A DNA stretch of 64,000 bases from positions 3,649,204-3,713,203 of the forward strand of contig OY759970.1 of the NCBI GenBank assembly GCA_963662965.1, given 5' to 3'. Shown one piece after another: positions 44,207 to 53,578 of this stretch. Both the position numbers and the translations under genes were made by a program. The DNA is from Vicinamibacterales bacterium. Lineage in GTDB: Bacteria; Acidobacteriota; Vicinamibacteria; Vicinamibacterales; UBA8438. The stretch's first letter is position 1, and every line of letters starts with the position of its first letter. The notes under the pieces were generated by a model, which did not search any database, was not told the origin of the DNA, and saw only the letters and a program-made list of their open reading frames with translations.

Positions 44207-45643
44207 GGCGAGTCAAGCCCATTCCTAGTTGAAACTCTCCGCGGCTCCTGATTGCTTACGCGGCTTTCTTCGTCGACGTCGTCGTGTCGATCTTCAGCTC
44301 TCGCTTCAATGCGTCACGAAGCCTGGGCAGGTGCCGGTAGCCCATCACCTTGCGCAGGCGTGGCTCGATGTCCAGGAGCGCAGTGGCCAGCCAGCGATGG
44401 CGTTGACTCGAGTTCTGCCAGTGATCGACCTTCGCACAGCGCTCCTCAATGAGCGCGTTGATGGACTCGAGGCCATTCGTCGTCTTCAGCGACCGGCCCA
44501 GCACACCGTACACCCCGAGGCGATGCAACGTCAGGGTCTCGTCGAGGCCTTCCGCCAGACTGCCGGCCGCGGATTGGTTCCGATCCTCCAGCTCATGCTG
44601 GAGCGACTGGAGGGCGGCGAGGGCCTCGTCGTACTCCGGACGGTTGTAGGCGCGCTGGAGACGCTGCCGCCACACCGGCTGCTCACGCTTGGCCACGTCA
44701 CTCACCACGTTCTCGCGCTTGTGCCACTGACACCGTTGCACTAGGGCGCGGTGGCGGAAAGCGTGTCGCACAGCCGCCCGGAGCCCCTTGCCGCCATCCA
44801 CGATCACCAGCAGCCCCTGGGAAACATCGAGGCCCCGCTCGACCAAGGACCGGAGGAACGGGGTCAACACCTGCTCGTTCTCGGTGCCCGTCTCGACGAA
44901 GCCCAGGAACCGTTTGTCCCCCGTCATCGTGATGCCCAGCGCGACGACCATCGTCGACTCGGCGAACGTCTTGCCGTCCAGCACCAGGGCCACAACGTCC
45001 TCCCCGGAGAGGTCCCGCTCCTGGAGTTCGCGGAATTTCGTCGCGCTGGCCTGAATGAACGCACGGGACACCGTCGACCCCGACAGGCCGATCGCCCCGG
45101 GAATCGCCTCGGCGGCCGCCGCGTAGTTGCGGCACGAGATCCCATACAGCACGCGCCGCAGCAACAGGTCATTGACGGCGCGATCGCCATGCAGCGCCTC
45201 GTACGACCGCAGTGGAATCTCGCGCTCCGTGACATGGCGAATCCGGGGCACGCGAATCGGCACGCGCTGGCCGGCCAACCCGACCGTCCCGGGGTTGCTG
45301 CCATGACGGCGCCCGCCGACTGACGGGGCTTTGCGGGCGTAGCGCTCGCCAGCCAACGCTGTCACTTCCTCGTCGAGCAACTCCTCGATGTGCATCAAGC
45401 CCAGCGGAACCAACGACCGGATCAACTCCACCTTGGCATCGACCTCCAGTTCGGCGTACTCCTCTCGGTCGATGACGTCGACCGCGCCCAACGTGTGACC
45501 TTTCTTGCGCTTCCTGACCGATCGTAGGACACTGCTCATCTCGGCTCCTTTCTCTCGTGGGCTGATGTCCGTCTTCTCAAACGTCATCAAACCACAGGGT
45601 TTGGAGCCGCTTCAATTTCCAACTAAGTTTCGCTCACACTCTC
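44207..45643 (-). mobile_element. IS256 family element; transposase 45539-44256
   Basis: VLDGK, IVDGGKGL, QRCQWHKREN, TTNGLES; imperfect IRs, ends approximate. Confidence 0.88.
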
Positions 45644-48303
45644 TCGAGCATCACTCTAAACGCATAGTCCCCATCATTCAGTGCGATAGTGTCTATCAAG
45701 TTCCACTGGGCGTCAAAAACAGAAATGAAACTCGGACCGAGTTCCCTATACTCCTCTCCAGGGGGGCGGATCGAGTTACTTACGCAGGCATCTGCCCCGC
45801 TGACTATTGATCCGTGGATGCCCGGAGCGATCTCCTGGGTATAGCCCACGCGACGTCCCCCCCATTTTGAGTAGCACTTCGGTTGAGAGTCCGATCATCC
45901 GGAAAGGGAGATCGGACGTGAAGAAGCGATTTACGGAAGCGCAGATCATCGGGTTCCTGCGGGAGACCGAGGCAGGCCTCCCGGTGAAGGACCTGTGCCG
46001 CCGGCACGGCTTCTCGGAGGCCAGTTACTACCTCTGGCGGAGCAAGTTCGGCGGGATGAGCGTCTCGGACGCGAAGCGCCTGAAAGAGCTTGAAACCGAA
46101 AACGGCCGGCTCAAGAAGCTCTTGGCGGAATCGCAGCTCGAGATCGAGGTGACCCGCGAGGTGCTGCGAAAAAAATGGTGACCGCACCGGTTCGACGGGA
46201 GGTGGTGCGGGAGATGGTCGCGCGGGGCCTCAGCGAGCGCAGGGCCCTGACCGTGGGGCAGATGAGCGCGTCGGCCTTCCGGTACGTGCCAAGGCCCGAT
46301 GGCAATGCGGTCGTCCGGGATCGGATCGTTGACCTGGCGCAGCGACATCGACGCTATGGGGCCGGGATGATCTATCTGAAGCTGCGGCAGGCCGGCCACG
46401 TCATCAATCACAAACGGGTCGATCGCCTGTACACGGAGGCCCGGCTCCAGTTGAAGCGCCGTCGACGCAAGAAGATCCCGAGAGCCGACCGCCAGCCACT
46501 GGTGCGCCCCGAGCGTCGCAACCAGGTCTGGTCCGCGGACTTCGTCTTCGATCGCACGGCGGATGGGCGGGTCATGAAGTGCCTGACCATTGTCGACGAC
46601 GCCACCCATGAGGCCGTGGCGATCGTCCCGGCGCGGGCCTTCGGGGGACTGCCGGTCACCCGCGTCCTGGACCGCCTGGCGATCACCAGTGGACTTCCGC
46701 AGATTCTCCGCACGGACAACGGGAAGGAGTTCTGCGGTCGCGCGATGCTCACATGGGCGCACACGCAGGGGCTGACCCTGCGTCTCATTGAACCCGGCAA
46801 GCCGAACCAGAACGCCTACATCGAGTCCTTCAACGGGCGCTTCCGCGACGAATGCCTGAACGAACACTGGTTTACGACCCTGGCCCACGCCCAGGCCCTG
46901 ATCGAAGCGTGGCGCTGTGAATACAACGAGGAGCGACCGAAGAAGGGTTTGGGCGGGCTGACGCCAGCCCTCTACGCGAAGCAACTGGCCGCGGAAAGCA
47001 GTACAGTCACCCCCGGACTCTAAAGCCGACCGCTACTCAAGGCGGGGGGACGTCGCACGACCCACAGATGATGCTCTTCGTTCCAATCTGCCCCAGTGGG
47101 GAAGTAGACATCCAGATCAGCGTCAGTGATTACACGAGTTGAACCTTGAATCAAGCTCAGGTCATCTGCTTTGATTGTGAAGGTGTGGATATTGGACGGA
47201 TCCGAGTTTCCGTAGTCCTTATTGGGGCTGAAAATTTGCAGCCGGTCTTCAAGCGTGCCCATTGTGCCTTGAGGTAGATGCACGATCGACGTCCCAGTAA
47301 CAAAGGGGCCACCCTCAGGCTGGACGACTGCCTCTCCAACCACCTCAAGGCTTGCGTTCAGCTTGTAGAGTTGAGCACCCCAATCCGAAGGTCCACCGAC
47401 CATGGGCTGATTGAAGAATTGCACGTACAGATAGGTGCCGTCGTTCGCAAACCCCATGTCCAAAAGGCGGTCCTCCAGGCGCTCGTCGCCTACTCGCGAA
47501 AGGCTCCCGTCGTCGAAAAGGTCGTCGAGGGGATTAAAGGATGTATCGAATCGAAGAATTCGGCCTTCCACCTCGCCTGGAACCGTCGTGACCATGAAGA
47601 TGGTGTCATTCATGACAGTGAATTTGTGATCGCCTAGATCTCCGGCGGTCTGCTGGGTGGGCCGAAATATGCTCCCCGCCACGGTGACATCGATGACCTG
47701 GCTTTCGGCACGCACTGGTACCAACTCACGGTTGAGTTCCTGAAAGTAGAGAGACTTCCCTTGACAGAATTCATCGAACCCCGCGAGTTGGTATGTGATG
47801 AGCACCCGATCCTCCCCTACGAGCATTACGTCAGCAAAGACAGCGCGGCCTCGGTCGGCGGTATGGAGAGGTCGTACAGGACCCACTCGGTTGATCTCGA
47901 CGACGCTCCCCCCGTGGCCGAGAGTGGGGACTGGCGGTAGTATCGGCTTGATCACCTTGCGTTGGGCGACGACACGTTCGCGCTCCTCTCTAATCACTTC
48001 CTCGACTGTCAGTTGGAACCACTTGTCGACCAACGCCTGGCCCTGTGGGGTGTCAAGGCCGGCACCGTACCTGGTTCCGAGGCTGTATTGCGACGCGGCA
48101 TCCCGCTCCTCTCCACGCACACGTACGTAGGCAAACTCTTCGGCCGTTAGTTCCTGCTGCACGTAGATCGGCACACTGCACGCTGTGATGGCAACCGTGA
48201 CCGCGATGAAGCGTACGTCGCGACCGGGCATAGACTTCCTTCCTTCGCCGATCTTGCCTGTGACCTCGTAGACGCCGAGCCGGGTGCCGGGACCGAGGGA
48301 CAT
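45644..48303 (-). pseudogene. Chimeric secreted protein (kinase N-terminal stub + degenerate Sel1 + beta-rich domain), split by IS3 and cut by IS256
   Basis: MSLGPGTRLGVYEVTGKIGEG; DAASQYSLGTRY..WFQL; HLWVV|GYTQ rejoined in frame across the IS. Confidence 0.7.
45851..47055 (+). mobile_element. IS3 family (IS407 group); orfA 45918-46181, orfB 46175-47023
   Basis: IR CGACGTCCCCCC; 4-bp TSD CACG; KRFTEAQII, WSADFV, TDNGKEF, IESFNGRFRDECLN. Confidence 0.95.
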
Positions 48304-48346
48304 GGTGCGGCCCTCATCCTACCGCTGGCTGGCAGGGGGTTCAATG

Positions 48347-48413
48347 CGCGGCGCGGCGGGCGGTTCAACGGGGACGGGGGCTAGTTACGTGGGTGCGCGG
48401 CGTCCCACTCACG
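48347..48413. repeat. Complete copy of the GCGCGGCG-CGGTTCAACGG-GCGCGGCG site
   Basis: Left half matches 51401-51424; right half matches 50780-50833. Confidence 0.8.
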
Positions 48414-48449
48414 CGACAGCTTCTGGCCTTCGGCGCGTTGCTGCGAGGT
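48381..48449 (-). pseudogene. C-terminal tail of a Sel1-repeat protein
   Basis: TSQQRAEGQKLSREWDAAHPRN*. Confidence 0.55.
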
Positions 48450-48547
48450 CTCACCCTGCACGTTCCTATTCACACACGGTACCGTCATTGTCGCGGTCGG
48501 TCATATAGCGATACGCGGGGTGGCCACGCCTCACGCGGGCGCGCGGT

Positions 48548-48790
48548 TTGACGACCTAACTGACGACCTAGCGAATGGACATCGCTGGATGCGCGTGGAC
48601 CCTGCGGACAGCAACGCCCAGAGAACCGGACGTTGTATGCCCGGATGGACACCGTCGGACGGGTTAGCGTCGAACTCTTAATCTGCGGGTTCCCGGTTCG
48701 AGTCCGGGGCGGCTCACCACTTTTTCCTAACACAATCGGCAAACCGTGCGGGTGCGACAGGCATCCGTCCCTCCAGAATGCCGGTGTGTT
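48548..48790 (+). other. att junction: integrase arm-type repeats + duplicated 3' half of tRNA-Lys and its downstream flank
   Basis: TGACGACCTA x2 (12-bp period); 48674-48790 is an inverted copy of about 51482-51599. Confidence 0.8.
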
Positions 48791-48833
48791 CCAAATCACT
48801 GGGCCTTGTCGCTCAGGAGCCGACGCGCGCCGT

Positions 48834-49826
48834 TTACGGCGTCAGAAAGCCCTTTGGCATCTTGGCCGCAATTGTGAAGTGCGGGTCGACGACCTGGACG
48901 ACCTCGTATTCCATCGCGTGCCCCATGAGGAGCGACGACCCTCGTTCGTCGTACCCGTAGTCGGCCATCAGCCATCGCTGCAGCTCCGTGGTCGCATGCT
49001 GGAGAGCTTGGAGAAGTGGTCGGGCGCTTCCCAGGACAATGATGGCGTCCTCGGTTTCGATTCGCGGCCACCCGATCTGGCTGTCCTTGATCAGGTCGAC
49101 GGAGAACTCGACATCCATCGAGACCTCGAGCGCGTTGCCGAGCACCTCACCCTCGCCCTGGCGCACGTGACCGTCACCGATGAAGAGCAGCGCGCCAGGT
49201 TCAAAGACCGGCAACATCACGCTCACACCAGCGACCATCCCGAAGTAGTCGAGGTTGCCGCCGAACTCCCCGGGGGTCGCCGTCCACACCGCTTCTTTGC
49301 GCGGCGGCGCGACGCCGACGCACCCGAGCATCGGCCTGAACGGAATCTCGATCCCCTGGTCCCGCAACGCGGGCGTCGACGGTCTCGCCACACGGGCCAC
49401 GGTGTCCACGTCCCACCGCTCTGACTGCCGCTCCCGTTCGCCCTGGTAGCGCAGGAACGACGGGTCCGCTGCGTACGGTGCCAGCACGGTGCTGGAGAAC
49501 GCCCAGTCGCGGTTTGGCTCGATCCTCTCAAGTCGTACGACGAGGACATCGCCCGGTTCCGCTCCCTCGACGTAGAACGGGCCGATCTGCGGGTTGGGTC
49601 CCTGGGCGACCTGGTCCCCGTTCCAGTCCCCTCCCGCGGCATCGATCGTCTTCGTGACGACGCGATCGCCAGGTCTAATACGAAGCGCCGGCGGATGCGC
49701 AAAGGAGAAGGTGTTGTAGTACTCGGTGGCCTCGAACTGGTGCGTCGTCTGCGCCGATAACGGCGCGCAGACAGCGGTCACCGCGAGCGCCGCGAGGAGT
49801 CGGTGCGCGTCGGTCGGACGGATCAT
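48834..49826 (-). CDS. Acetamidase/formamidase family protein
   Basis: GPFYVEGAEPGD, PMLGCVGVAP, FGGNLD, IGDGHVRQGEGEV. Confidence 0.9.
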   Translation of the reverse strand: MIRPTDAHRLLAALAVTAVCAPLSAQTTHQFEATEYYNTFSFAHPPALRIRPGDRVVTKTIDAAGGDWNGDQVAQGPNPQIGPFYVEGAEPGDVLVVRLERIEPNRDWAFSSTVLAPYAADPSFLRYQGERERQSERWDVDTVARVARPSTPALRDQGIEIPFRPMLGCVGVAPPRKEAVWTATPGEFGGNLDYFGMVAGVSVMLPVFEPGALLFIGDGHVRQGEGEVLGNALEVSMDVEFSVDLIKDSQIGWPRIETEDAIIVLGSARPLLQALQHATTELQRWLMADYGYDERGSSLLMGHAMEYEVVQVVDPHFTIAAKMPKGFLTP

Positions 49827-50089
49827 GAGGCTCGCTCCTATCAGCCGCGTCGTCGTGCCAGAGACGGGAACCCACGCTCAGGACCACTGGCCGCCTCGGA
49901 GTTGTGGGATCGACGAGTCGGTGGGATTATAGCGACCTCTCAGACCGATTCAGGCAGGAGGCCGGACATGCATCCGCCTATCGATCGTACTCTGCTCCAG
50001 CGCCTGGCTGCGGCCGCGGCGATTGACGCTCCGCATAGGGCGCGGTGGCGGTCAGTGGCGTGGACGAAGCTGACCGAGAATACTATTCG

Positions 50090-50647
50090 TTCCTCGCACG
50101 CGTACTCGTAGAGCGGCTCCTCGTTCCGCGTCATCAGCACCTCGGCGGTCCAGGGCCCCGTCCAGGTCGTCGGGTCGCTGACGGTGAACTCATACAGGAG
50201 GGTGTCGGCGTCGACCCGCGTGAACCGCTCGACCAGATGCAGGTTGGCGCTCGATCCCCCGAGGGAGGTCTCGCGCAGGAAATTCCGCGTCTCGACGACC
50301 AGCGTGTCGCCGTCCCAGCTCGCCCGCGAGTCGCCGACCCACTGGCGGAGGTCGGCCGGTAGGTGCGAGCGCCCGTCCAGCGGGATGATGCGCGCGTTGT
50401 GGACCATCTCGTTGAGGATGACCACGTGGTCGGCTGTCTGGAACAGCTGCATGTTGTTGTTGTAGGCGCTCGGCGTCATCGGTGGCCCCGAGTTGAAGCC
50501 GAGCAGGCAGCGCTCAGAGATACCGCGATCCTCGGGGCCATGCGCATGCCGTCCCTGCAGGATTCGCTGCAGTTCCCTGCGGGCTTCGACCTTCGGCCGT
50601 ACGGCAGGAATGCGCCCATTTGGCGGATCGACGACAAGTGACGTCCG
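50090..50647 (-). pseudogene. Internal/C-terminal fragment of the same secreted family as 11679-11903
   Basis: RTSLVVDPPNGRIP, ERCLLGFNSGPPM, WVGDSRASWDGDTLVVET, YEYACEE. Confidence 0.7.
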
Positions 50648-50833
50648 CTGCTCGGCGAGCGGTTCAACGGGGAGGGCTTGGATGCATCCCGTAGAGGACG
50701 AGGACGCACCCTCCGTCTGCGAGCCGGAGGGTGCAATGCGGGGGTAACTACTGACTTTTGTAACGGGTTACAAAAGTGACGGTTCAACGGGGACGGGGTT
50801 TAGTCACGCGGGCGCGCGGCGTACCGCCCCACG
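50645..50833. repeat. Two CGGTTCAACGG sites 120 bp apart enclosing a hairpin and a perfect palindrome
   Basis: Cores at 50660 and 50780; ACTTTTGTAAC-gg-GTTACAAAAGT at 50754-50777. Confidence 0.8.
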
Positions 50834-51346
50834 AATCTTTCCTTCCCAGTCTCGAGGTCCTCGATAGACATCGAGGCCATTCTCGTGGCGTAGAAATTCT
50901 AGAAGCTCTGATACTCGCCCTGTTTCGACAGACTTAAACTCGGCGCTTAGCGAACTGTCGTAGTCCCATCCATCGGGTGTTACGAGTTCCTGTATCTTGC
51001 TACCTGTCAGTCGGCAACCCATGAACATCTTGTGGTTATCGCCTCCGAGCGGTCCTCGCCAGCACTCAGCCCAATCACACGGGACCAGAAGGCCACTCTG
51101 CTGATCGGCCACAACGAGGTCTACTGCTTTTCCGTCCTCTTGATACTTAATACCGTGAATGGCGAGGGCATCCTCAAAAGCTTCAACATCGTCTGGTGTC
51201 ATGAACCCGACTCGAATCAGTTCGCCATCAGCACACAGCGTTCGATTCGGCGGATCCGCCTCGAATGCCTCCCAGCCACCGGGATAGCGTTCGACAACGG
51301 TTGTTGCCTTGATGACAACCGATAAGGCTTCGATTAGGACCGCCAT
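50804..51346 (-). CDS. Hypothetical protein (lower-GC, cassette-like; possible frameshift near the 3' end)
   Basis: MAVLIEALSVVI...LCADGELIRVGFM; bounded by GCGCGGCG at 50814 and 51404. Confidence 0.65.
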   Translation of the reverse strand: MAVLIEALSVVIKATTVVERYPGGWEAFEADPPNRTLCADGELIRVGFMTPDDVEAFEDALAIHGIKYQEDGKAVDLVVADQQSGLLVPCDWAECWRGPLGGDNHKMFMGCRLTGSKIQELVTPDGWDYDSSLSAEFKSVETGRVSELLEFLRHENGLDVYRGPRDWEGKIRGAVRRAPA

Positions 51347-51552
51347 GGCCAACTCAGTTTCTCCGAACACAACACCGAACGGCGAGCTGTCTAGCCTGCC
51401 GCGGCGCGGCGGGCGGTCCAACGGTGGTGACTTTCGCCCCTCTGTACGCAGAGTAAAACCCGAACATTGGAACATTATTGAAACACACCGGTATTCTGGA
51501 GGGACGGATGCCTGTCGCACCCGCACGGTTTGCCGATTGTGTTAGGAAAAAG

Positions 51553-51628
51553 TGGTGAGCCGCCCCGGACTCGAACCGGGAACCCGCAGATTAAGAGTCT
51601 GCTGCTCTGCCAGTTGAGCTAGCGGCCC
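51553..51628 (-). tRNA. tRNA-Lys(CTT)
   Basis: 76-nt cloverleaf, loop CT-CTT-AA, GTTCGAGTC, CCA end. Confidence 0.97.
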
Positions 51629-51790
51629 ACTCGAGAGTGGCTGGTACGCCGACATCATCCATCGCCGCCGCCGCCAAATCATAGGGGCGTACCGGCCGGG
51701 AGGTCAACAGGATCAGCGGCGGCGATCGCGTGAAACAGCGGCTAACGTTAGTGACGTTGTCGCAACGCGTCGCGGGTTGACGGGAGTGCA

Positions 51791-51867
51791 TGGCGCGCCC
51801 GGCAGGATTCGAACCTGCGGCCTTTCGCTCCGGAGGCGAACGCTCTATCCAGCTGAGCTACGGGCGC
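51791..51867 (-). tRNA. tRNA-Arg(CCG)
   Basis: 77 nt, loop CT-CCG-GA, CCA end. Confidence 0.97.
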
Positions 51868-51873
51868 TCTGGT

Positions 51874-51950
51874 TGGCGCGCCCGGAGGGATTTGAACCCC
51901 CGACCTACGGGTTCGAAGCCCGGCGCTCTATCCAGCTGAGCTACAGGCGC
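51874..51950 (-). tRNA. tRNA-Arg(TCG)
   Basis: 77 nt, loop CT-TCG-AA, CCA end. Confidence 0.93.
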
Positions 51951-51978
51951 GCGAGCGGAGATCTTAACACGCGGGCGT

Positions 51979-53578
51979 TTATTCCTCGTACGCGAACGCC
52001 GCTTCGAGTCGCGCCGGTTTGGTCGTCCTGAGCGCGGCCCAGAGGTCGCCGACCTGTTCGAGCCGCGTGAAGATGGACCGCAGCGTGAAGTCGTGCGGCG
52101 CGAGTCCCGCCTTGATACCCTCGTGCACCTCGGTCCAGGTGAGTGGTGTCGAGACATCGGCGAACGGGCTTGCGCGTGCGCTATAGGCACAGGCGAACGT
52201 CTTGCCATAGATGTTCTGCAGGTAGTCGATGTAGACGACGTCGTCGCGCCGCTTCTTGACCATCCGCTCCACCATTGCCACCTTCGGATGCTGCGTCGCC
52301 ACGACGGTGGCGACGATCTGGCAGAAGATCAGCCCGGCGTCGTAGGGGGTGGCGGGCGGGAGGGGAATGAAAATGTGCACGCCCTCCGACCCGGAGGTCT
52401 TGGCGAAACTGGGCACGCTGAGTCGCTCGAGCTCGTCGTGGACCCAGCAGGCGACATCCAACACGTTGTCGAACGTCGCCTTCGGCATCGGGTCGAGGTC
52501 GAGCGCCACCATGTCGACCGCCTCGATCTCGGGCAGCGTCAAGAACCATGGATCTTGTGAGATGACGGCGAGCTGCGCCATGTAGAGGAGGGTTTGGAGC
52601 GCGCCGCCGACGAGGTAGGGCACGCCCGAGTCTGGCTTCTCGGCGTTCTCGCGAACGACCGAGACGCGGAGGCCGTCTGGAATCGGGTCGGGCGCCCGGT
52701 GTTGATAGAACGACTTGCCGGTGACGCCGTTGGGAAAGCGTTTCATGACAAGCGGTCGGTTCGCGACCACCGGTAACAGGTAGGGCGCCATCCGCAGGTA
52801 GAAGCGGACGAGGTCGCCTTTGGTGATCCCGGGCTCGGGCCAGAAGAGCTTGTGCAGATTCCCCACCGGCAAACGCGCGCCGTTGGTCAGTTCGAGGATC
52901 TCCCGCCGCTTGCGTTTCTCCAGGTCGTCGAGCTGCGTGAGCAGGTCGTCGAGCGCCGCCCCAGAGTTTCTTCCGGGCCGACCGAGTGGCTCGGCGTTTC
53001 TTGGGCGGTGCGTCTCGGTCCTGGGTGGGGCGGTGATCCGGCCGGCGGACGTCAACCGGACGCACATCGTCGCGCAGGCCGTGATAAACCGGGTTGCGCA
53101 AGACGCCGTCGAGGGTCCACTGGGTGAAGGTGGTCCGCGAGACCAGCACCGGCTTGACCCACCGACGCGGCTCGGTCGGCTTTCCGCTGGGAAGATCAGC
53201 GAACGGTGATTCGTCGACCGCGATCGGGACGAGCAACGACGCGATACGATCGAGCTCAGCCTCGGTGAATCCAGACCCGACTTGGCCGGCGAAGATCAGC
53301 TTCTCCCGGCGCGATCGCCGAGCGGCGCGACGAGTTCGGGAAACTGCTCCGTCTTGTCCCGTCCCAGCCGCGAGTAGATGACCGGCGGATTCCCGCCGTC
53401 GAGCGCCACAAGGGCACGTATCCCGTCGTATTTTGGTTCGAACACCAGCGGTCGACTTGGCGAGAAGGCTGGCGTGGGTGCTCGGGGGGGCGAGCACGGC
53501 GAGCATCGGACGGACCTCACGCGGATCGCCACGCCACGCTTTGGTGGCCGGCCGTTTCGGTGCCTTCGCTTTGTCCAC
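51979..53578 (-). pseudogene. ligD: NHEJ DNA ligase D; ligase domain deleted/frameshifted, polymerase domain open
   Basis: FEPKYDGIRA, YSRLG, GQVGSGF in different frames; KRFPNG, LDLDP, KTSGSEGVH, YIDYLQN. Confidence 0.88.

Follow-up and report, generated by a model that had tools for sequence, protein, structure and literature searches.

To our knowledge, integrons are the only well-understood general platform for the capture of single genes, and an integron is essentially defined by the integrase IntI and by folded attC sites. Tandem accretion of integrase-less units at att sites occurs with the cis-mobilisable elements found beside streptococcal integrative and conjugative elements (ICEs) and in composite staphylococcal cassette chromosome (SCC) islands, which have integration-site repeats of about 15 bp. 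Xer-dependent modules comprise the pdif modules and the integrative mobile elements exploiting Xer (IMEX). Repetitive extragenic palindromes and the mosaic elements built from them (REP/BIME), Correia-type repeats and repeats resembling miniature inverted-repeat transposable elements (MITEs) are short, abundant, intergenic and lineage-specific, and some copies have promoter activity or hairpins. Finally, near-identical promoter sequences that precede unrelated genes, within and between genomes, have been described as putative mobile promoters, as far as the accessible part of that report goes (PMC3575422). Here we describe a family of repeat sites that lie beside a tRNA-Lys(CTT) gene in a stretch of 64,000 nucleotides (the window; positions 3,649,204 to 3,713,203 of contig OY759970.1, assembly GCA_963662965.1) from a bacterium of the Vicinamibacterales. 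A previous, sequence-only reading of the window had taken the repeat for a recombination site that collects and shuffles gene cassettes. We found that the borders of cassettes lie at a 15-bp core of these sites, and that cassettes have recently been transferred between genera of Vicinamibacterales, which are soil and marine bacteria.

The motif CGGTYCAACGG is present four times in the window, at exactly the positions given by the sequence-only reading (48361, 50660, 50780 and 51414) and in every case on the plus strand. This is above chance, 100 dinucleotide-preserving shuffles of the window having contained 0.22 copies on average and none having reached four. The block GCGCGGCG or GCTCGGCG begins 10 bp ahead of the core at 48351, 50650 and 51404, and again 34 bp past the core start at 48395 and 50814, a spacing that was confirmed by reading the sequence. 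The mosaic nature of the site at 48347-48413 is also real: 48347-48377 matches 50646-50676 (87%) and 51400-51430 (84%; repeat family D2), and 48361-48406 matches 50780-50825 (87%; family D3).

To see the whole family, we searched the genome of the window (G000, 5.22 Mb) with the 15-mer CGGTTCAACGGGGAS and obtained 58 matches with at most one mismatch, against 2 for the reversed control. An nhmmer profile made from the copies of the 15-mer found 69 sites at E≤0.05, which cluster at 2.98-3.00, 3.43-3.47, 3.70 (the window), 4.24, 4.46-4.47, 4.82-4.85 and 4.93-4.99 Mb, with a few singletons. The anatomy of the site, derived from alignment column counts and site listings, comprises in gene orientation an upstream arm, the invariant 15-bp core GTCCCCGTTGAACCG and a downstream arm, the whole forming a directional double-stranded site that spans about 45-70 bp around the core. 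Conserved sequence reaches both sides of the putative crossover, and the near-invariance of the 15 core bases holds across two families. The commonest upstream arm, R1, is CGCCGCGCACCCGCGTGAC-TAA-CCCCC and contains stop codons in two frames; the downstream arm is of two main kinds, of which L1 is CCCGCCG-N4-GCGs-TAGGCTAGAC and L2 is a hairpin, CTAnTTTTGTAGC...GCTACAAAAG, the stem of which varies in a compensatory manner among copies. Sel1-repeat genes end ...REWDAAHPR in R1, and unrelated genes, including a low-GC gene of the window, end ...RRAPA. Since different upstream open reading frames (ORFs) read it in two frames, R1 is part of the site and not of one gene family. Upstream and downstream arm types were found in all combinations: among 121 cores, R1 was paired with L1 in 40 and with L2 in 16, R2/3 with L1 in 12 and with L2 in 2, and other upstream arms with L1 in 31 and with L2 in 8. 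Arm types assort freely, and therefore only the core, 15-18 nt, is common to many junctions. Some core variants are linked to their neighbours, a C at position 1 going with the R2 arm and a T at position 14 with one L2 cassette. The similarity of the core to several motifs (the Acidobacteria LexA box, extracytoplasmic-function sigma and sigma-54 promoters, the tRNA T-arm and IS91 target tetramers) was considered by eye and dropped.

The limits within which this family is distributed were clear. Among 41 genomes, the core (at most one mismatch) was found 26 times in G016, 25 in G005, 19 in G040, which is of a different family, 11 in G023, 7 in G017, 5 in G014 and 4 in G008; in the rest, several complete genomes included, it was single or absent. 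The exact 15-mer was present in 18 of a sample of 401 genomes of the class, seven of which had at least 5 exact copies (G000 37, G293 25, G307 20, G016 12, G005 12, G040 7 and G023 5). Beyond G000, the family is multi-copy in six genomes, which span another five genera and, within the order, two families. Copies are co-oriented over long distances, as in G040, where all are on the minus strand from 16 to 59 kb and all on the plus strand from 1488 to 1504 kb. The search of the genome and its relatives that the sequence-only reading had advised thus revealed arrays of variable, mostly co-oriented genes bounded by the site. When a 24-mer made of core and arm sequence was searched in one genome per species of bacteria and archaea, 17 stretches matched; 15 of them are in records titled as metagenome-assembled genomes of Vicinamibacterales or Vicinamibacteria, and the remaining two, short contigs that carry different names, have identical flanks. 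Six isolated exact matches to the core from other families of the class (L061-L066) have no arms, fall within coding sequence and were taken as chance. Carriage by viruses was also dropped, as the two 18-mer matches in viral contigs were both without site context. An Rfam E-value search of 47000-52500 returned only the three tRNAs and weak matches overlapping these, with no hit at the sites, and the accessible parts of the literature on Vicinamibacter integrons, acidobacterial gene cassettes and Vicinamibacterales tRNA-Lys islands describe no such sites.

The ORFs of the arrays belong to dozens of unrelated Pfam families. Nucleases are of the PD-(D/E)XK, GIY-YIG, Mrr-like, BglII-like and GmrSD types; other cassettes encode SIR2, P450, SelO, KatG, gamma-glutamyltranspeptidase, an AcrB-type pump, glyoxalases, pyrroloquinoline quinone (PQQ) dehydrogenases and Band7/NfeD proteins, and Sel1 proteins are numerous, as are ORFs that belong to no family, with insertion sequence (IS) elements interspersed. 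When the 397 ORFs (120 aa or longer) of 80 metagenome loci around sites were clustered, the largest cluster had 8 members from 8 loci, all of them Sel1 proteins and one fused to an HNH domain. Sel1 genes, which the sequence-only reading had placed among the cassettes, are in fact the commonest of them. One metagenome contig (L155:1-1020) carries a site-adjoining Sel1-repeat protein with a C-terminal HNH endonuclease domain. Another frequent cassette, always behind an L2-type hairpin arm, is a DUF5681-like ORF of about 99 aa starting MPFxPGQSGNPxGRPxGSRNK (L005:685-981, L004:9149-9460, L021:13959-14294, L031:16950-17285), with 7 matches in G000, 5 in G005, 5 in G016 and 1 in G040; among PHROGs it has no more than weak matches, to families of unknown function. 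It was rejected as a candidate recombinase: it tracks these four site-rich genomes, was not found in G023, G014, G017 or G008, and shows no sign of a recombinase.

Proteins encoded by cassettes (KatG, Band7 with NfeD, SelO, SIR2, a MYG1-like protein and others) are 93-98% identical across genera and families, while XerC, XerD and their syntenic neighbours share 57-73% protein identity between the same genomes. This difference indicates that the cassettes moved recently. The KatG segment (about 2.5 kb) is 96.4-98.5% identical at the DNA level among G000, G005, G016 and G040. Between G005 and G016 the match (2504 nt, 97.8%) extends from 5 nt ahead of the upstream core through the final base of the downstream one; between G000 and G005 it stops at that same base, and between G000 and G016 it starts 8 nt ahead of the upstream core. 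Past the cores the neighbours differ between genomes and the flanks are unrelated. Similarly, a ferredoxin cassette of 475 nt is 93-94% identical in three genomes, in a different order. The shuffling proposed by the sequence-only reading was therefore borne out in that the same cassettes are flanked by different neighbours in different genomes.

Further evidence that exchanged segments end at the core was obtained with a border test on the 50 matches, 300 nt or longer and at least 90% identical, that the fetched array regions of different genomes share, IS copies included. Of the 92 match ends that lay off a locus edge, 22 had a core no more than 10 nt away in at least one of the two genomes, against a mean of 2.0 and a maximum of 9 in 1000 trials of random placement; 12 ends were near a core in both genomes, against a random mean of 0.01 and a maximum of 1. 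The sequence-only reading had put the invariant unit and the breakpoints at the CGCCGCGC or GCGCGGCG blocks; they lie instead at the 15-bp core (48361-48375 and its counterparts). Its idea of a recombination site thus stands as far as cassette borders are concerned, and that the recombination is site-specific rather than homologous is what we infer. A segment of 3 kb that carries a 423-aa integrase shows 99.4% DNA identity between L050 (G016:C1:1661500-1665500) and L041 (G040:C1:1466500-1470500), from genomes of two families. This is another sign of recent exchange, independent of the sites.

A further aspect, which was not part of the sequence-only reading, is that the site is built like a sigma-70-type promoter. 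The core contains TTGAAC, which resembles a -35 box, and a -10-like TAnnnT hexamer lies exactly 17 nt downstream of it in 49 of 83 L1-type sites, whereas the other spacers from 12 to 21 nt occurred 0-3 times each and a spacer of 22 nt 6 times. The hexamer is most often TAGGCT (26 sites), followed by TACGCT (5), TAGGAT (4), TAGGGT (3) and single variants such as TAGAAT and TAATCT; T1, A2 and T6 are conserved in 70-76% of the sites, position 4 in 69% and positions 3 and 5 in 48-59%. None of the 26 L2-type sites had the TAnnnT hexamer. The next gene downstream, as predicted with a crude gene caller of our own, was co-oriented with the site in 32 cases and opposite in 8, and none was called in 20. 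Judging from this anatomy, the sites would likely act as promoters into the next gene. Many L1 arms run into a conserved leader (AGACATCTCACCGTTCGTCGTCGTGGTCGGAGGAGnCT-ATG; e.g. L029:8200-8270 and L030:9552-9660) in which a Shine-Dalgarno-like GGAGG stands before the ATG; the 5' part of the leader could pair with this GGAGG.

Immediately to the right of the array of the window are tRNA-Lys(CTT) (51553-51628, minus strand), which is the anchor, and two tRNA-Arg genes; the same two tRNA-Arg genes precede tRNA-Lys(CTT) in G005. The first site lies 125-135 nt downstream of the tRNA-Lys gene in G000 (125 nt), G005 and G016, and the flank in between (51429-51552, minus strand, in the window) is common to the three. 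In G001, G008 and G035, the sequence downstream of tRNA-Lys is unrelated and devoid of sites, which indicates that flank and array belong to an inserted island. Three further partial copies of tRNA-Lys, beginning near tRNA position 30, are found in G000, of which that at 2981892-2982091 includes both flank and first site. A tmRNA, tRNA-Ala, tRNA-Glu or tRNA-Leu gene stands at the end of other arrays. As in tRNA-linked islands, units are separated by identical direct repeats of the core and anchored at a tRNA or tmRNA gene. The array of the window is bracketed by a 121-nt inverted repeat (48674-48794 and 51478-51598, 98% identical), the left copy of which, on the plus strand, consists of the 3' half of tRNA-Lys(CTT) and 75 nt of the downstream flank. 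Partial copies of this repeat are present in other arrays of G000 (2981892-2982091 and 4939238-4939368), and such sequences suggest that pieces of the island have been inverted and duplicated. Most arrays of G000 are terminus-proximal (GC-skew minimum at 1.68 Mb).

All the genes flanking the sites of the window are on the minus strand, as the sequence-only reading had noted, and so are the sites and genes of the array that follow, which are given in gene orientation. The first site of the array, D (51391-51428), has an L1 arm and a degenerate core (CGGTCCAACGGTGGT; profile E = 0.33), and both its promoter hexamers are weakened (TTGGAC, CAGGCT). The cassette gene behind it (50804-51346, 180 aa, without Pfam or PHROG family) sits, as read before, in a 590-bp unit (50814 to 51404) and has 55.2% G+C against 64.4% for the window. 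Its final codons (...RRAPA*) are provided by the R1 arm of site C (50780-50825, core 50780-50794). An ORF-less unit with a 120-nt period follows between two cores (50675-50779; hairpins at 50706-50734 and 50754-50777); it is bracketed by 18-nt direct repeats of the core and is found again at four further places in G000 and in G005 and G016. Site B (50646-50674), an L1 remnant with the core variant CGGTTCAACGGGGAG, is where an N-terminally truncated member of a large paralogous family (49940-50641) is cut off, a family of proteins of about 340 aa without a Pfam match and with more than 30 paralogues in G000. Next come an acetamidase/formamidase-family gene (48834-49826, 330 aa) and a lone, coreless fragment of an R1 arm at 48531-48546 (family D10), the extra partial arm of the sequence-only reading, which equals 50804-50819 at 16 of 16 positions.

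Site A has its core at 48361-48375 (CGGTTCAACGGGGAC on the plus strand). Its upstream arm, of type R1 (48376-48413), runs into the remnant of a Sel1-family gene tail (...AEGQKLSREWDAAHPRN*; 48376-48482 in all), a tail that also terminates full-length Sel1 genes at other sites. The arm does supply the end of this tail, as had been claimed, the minus-strand translation of 48387-48482 closing with ...AEGQKLSREWDAAHPR, N and a stop. The downstream part (48305-48360) is an L1 arm and then a second, degenerate copy of the unit, in which lies the only intact -35/-10 pair of the window: TTGAAC (48339-48344, complement), a 17-nt spacer and TAGGAT (48316-48321, complement), 12 nt ahead of the ATG at 48303. 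The same tandem form is present in G016 (L022:3868, L026) and in G000 at 3465616. The ORF that starts at this ATG (47020-48303, 427 aa, 57.5% G+C) is without Pfam or PHROG family; it begins with a glycine-loop motif like that of protein kinases (GTRLGVYEVTGKIGEG), no kinase domain follows, and by its sequence it looks like a fusion or a remnant. Adjoining the array, at 44256-47023, are a transposase gene of the IS256 type (Mutator family) and an orfA/orfB pair of the IS3 type, identical copies of which interrupt other arrays.

On balance, we think it somewhat more likely than not that the repeats are sites at which double-stranded DNA is recombined in a cassette system that resembles an integron, has a promoter built into its sites and relies on a putative recombinase. 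The upstream arm would move with the preceding cassette and the downstream arm with the following one, a recombinase, probably acting in trans, exchanging strands within the 15-bp core. Cassettes of 0.1 to several kb could in this way be inserted, excised, reordered and occasionally inverted, and would build up as arrays inside islands beside tRNA and tmRNA genes. Each junction would rebuild a sigma-70-type promoter, with TTGAAC from the core and TAnnnT from the commonest downstream arm, so that the incoming cassette would be expressed. In this scheme the site-specific catalysis, a circular intermediate and the activity of the promoter are inferred. The best-supported description is that of a system specific to Vicinamibacterales, which follows the logic of integrons with different parts. 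That bacteria possess, in such sites, a second and integron-independent mode of gene capture, with a 15-bp core, an unrecognised or recruited host enzyme, one promoter per junction and movement between genera and families, is a broader proposal that we make tentatively.

Observations of several kinds weigh against such a cassette system, beginning with its enzyme. There is no tyrosine-recombinase match within the genome range of the window, in keeping with the sequence-only reading, which had seen no recombinase there; it had named a linked one as support, and the tRNA-Lys islands of G000, G005 and G016 contain no PF00589 match and thus no cognate integrase of the kind expected in a tRNA-linked island. 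Only two tyrosine-recombinase families, the Xer pair and one of IS-like integrases, are common to all five site-rich genomes (G000, G005, G016, G023 and G040). Neither G005 nor G023 has serine recombinases; IS110-type transposases are lacking in G016, G023 and G040, and Y1 transposases in G005, G016, G023 and G040. No recombinase was enriched beside the sites of the 80 metagenome loci.

Individual candidates did not fare better. The IS-like integrase family was rejected as it is far commoner in site-free genomes (30 matches in G009, 29 in G012 and 24 in G038). The 423-aa integrase, which is 99% identical as a protein in G016 and G040, is from a family abundant in site-free genomes and has no adjoining site, and a 409-aa arm-type integrase beside an array of G040 is found elsewhere only in G016, where it is frameshifted. 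Truncated integrase genes adjoin sites at G000 4472192 and G005:C5:121590; they are broken at different points of the protein. With the integron integrase model TIGR02249, the best score in the five site-rich genomes was 84.3 bits, for a cut-off of 265, and the matches skipped model positions of about 184-237, which are the IntI-specific region. A search with a dif consensus found a single dif-like 28-mer in G000, at 4606128, which is the maximum of the cumulative GC skew (4.60 Mb) and 10 kb from one of the two Xer genes; it has no similarity to the core. We also observed in G000 a family of about 16 tyrosine recombinases, at 0.26-1.02 Mb and 3.04-3.08 Mb and mostly on the minus strand of one region (e.g. 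260950, 297954, 348522, 403610, 471663, 506466, 510254, 598163, 621343, 768222, 1021390, 3038166 and 3084994), amid many IS5-like copies and with one copy each in G005 and G040. From this arrangement it looks like a recombinase-borne insertion element.

The sites themselves and their behaviour provide the other points against. The core is strongly asymmetric and, on inspection, has no clear pair of inverted binding arms, unlike the core sites of classical tyrosine or serine recombinases. Most junctions are of the R1-core-L1 form and share about 40-66 nt at 80-95% similarity, and rare homologous exchange could be part of the source of the shuffling. Gene orientation is looser than in integrons, 8 of 40 called downstream genes and 12 of 35 called upstream genes being on the opposite strand. 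As for the promoter, the hexamers of the sites fit the consensus at 8 of 12 positions and a strict scan for E. coli-type promoters over 47800-51700 found none. Public runs with the stretch made up 20 rows from nine studies among the matches listed, and we compared the contigs of four of them, from four studies (X1, X2, X4 and X12), over 47000-52000. The arrangement was that of the window in 815-nt contigs of two runs (50657-51471) and in a 722-nt contig of a third (50657-51378); the fourth had a diverged allele. Among the 15 joints listed there was no core-to-core joint, circle or empty site, in contigs, which drop rare forms and hence are silent on activity. Word depth over the site regions was 10- to 60-fold above that of the surroundings, as expected of a repeat, and contigs from RNA runs (X19, X20) covered small shares of the stretch only.

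The main alternative is that the sites are dispersed modules of strong promoter and intergenic sequence, or mobile promoters, to which no recombinase is dedicated, and that related genomes exchange the segments between them by homologous or microhomology-based recombination after DNA uptake or island transfer. Such modules would account for the -35/N17/-10 anatomy and for the bias of downstream genes towards the same strand. They would equally explain the missing enzyme, with no recombinase linked to the sites or specifically shared, and the stability of the local arrangement in public runs, and the similarity over 40-66 nt is that of the commonest junction, R1-core-L1 (40 of 121). There is precedent in print for near-identical promoters before unrelated genes, at least in the part of the report available (PMC3575422). 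However, the junctions that share the core only (R1-L2, R2/3-L1, R2/3-L2 and those of KatG) offer 15-18 nt, which is too short for efficient exchange by RecA, and the ends of homology concentrate within 10 nt of the core and not along the arms. Moreover, 15 near-invariant bases across two families far exceed the needs of a -35 box, and exact 18-nt direct repeats of the core flank even the 120-nt unit that has no ORF. Taken together, we consider this alternative rather unlikely.

It is much less likely still that the site is a small non-autonomous transposable element, of the REP/BIME, MITE or IS-end type, and that the genes in between are not mobile units. The sites are indeed multi-copy, intergenic, patchy among genomes and located in IS-rich islands, and both the L2 arm and the 120-nt unit form hairpins with compensatory changes among copies. 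Yet the simple site has neither terminal inverted repeats nor a fold: the DNA fold of 48335-48415 had z values of +1.89 (plus strand) and +1.77 (minus strand), i.e. worse than shuffled sequence, and that of a second site (L006:3290-3370) z values of 0.08 and 1.21, strong hairpins being confined to the 120-nt unit (50660-50780; z = -4.0, minus strand). Copies are directional and co-oriented in arrays, Y1 transposases, including REP-associated ones (RAYT), and IS110 transposases are absent from most site-rich genomes (PF01797 is present in G000 alone of the five), and entire core-to-core segments are 96-98% identical between genera and end at cores. Lastly, an ordinary array of an integron, or of clustered attC sites without their integrase (CALIN), although it would share the variable cassettes in co-oriented arrays, the arms overlapping ORF ends and a core motif, GTTGAAC, that on inspection fits the R' consensus of attC (GTTRRRY), is highly improbable in view of the TIGR02249 scores of the five genomes, the lack of single-strand folding, the conservation on both sides of the putative crossover and the promoter-like sequence that each cassette brings along, and the sequence-only reading was right to call the site unlike a canonical attC.

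If the recombination is enzymatic, the integron-like cassette system that we favour would provide a new pair of recombinase and site, and possibly a tool for modular insertion of self-expressing genes. If it is not, short promoter repeats would be organising the exchange of genes between species. Either way, the sites provide a handle on the flow of accessory genes in Vicinamibacterales, a little-studied group of Acidobacteriota; these genes include catalase-peroxidase, efflux pumps, restriction-type nucleases, SIR2 and genes of unknown function. What the arrays would share with integrons is a logic realised with other parts: unrelated cassettes in arrays, identical cassettes in differing contexts and recent transfer between genera.

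Compared with the described systems, the sites resemble REP/BIME and MITE-like repeats in being short, abundant, intergenic and lineage-specific and in having hairpins in some copies, but their main form is without inverted termini or palindromic body, their arrays are strictly directional and they have no associated Y1 transposase. In contrast to mobile promoters, they also mark both ends of the exchanged segments, with breakpoints in the 15-bp core. Like the Xer-dependent modules, the cassettes are without recombinase, are bounded by short sites and are possibly moved by a ubiquitous host enzyme; the core is, however, unlike the dif-like site of G000, and the sites are direct repeats rather than AT-rich and palindrome-like. 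With the accretion beside ICEs and in SCC islands they have in common units separated by short identical direct repeats of an att core, a single chromosomal anchor at a conserved gene or tRNA, and a majority of units without recombinase, which would move in trans. The units are here far smaller (0.1-5 kb) and many more, no element with a matching recombinase was found, and the sites contain a putative promoter. The likeness to integron attC arrays and CALINs lies in directional sites, in co-oriented arrays of cassettes that have one or a few genes of very diverse function and recur unchanged in different contexts, in a site that overlaps the 3' end of ORFs and in a GTTRRRY-like heptamer at the presumed crossover. 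Unlike integrons, however, the present arrays have no IntI and no folded single-strand hairpin, but an invariant double-strand core of 15 bp with arms on both sides; they have promoter-like -35 and -10 elements at each junction, where an integron has one promoter for the whole array, and their cassettes are larger, sometimes inverted, and gathered in tRNA-linked islands at several places per genome.

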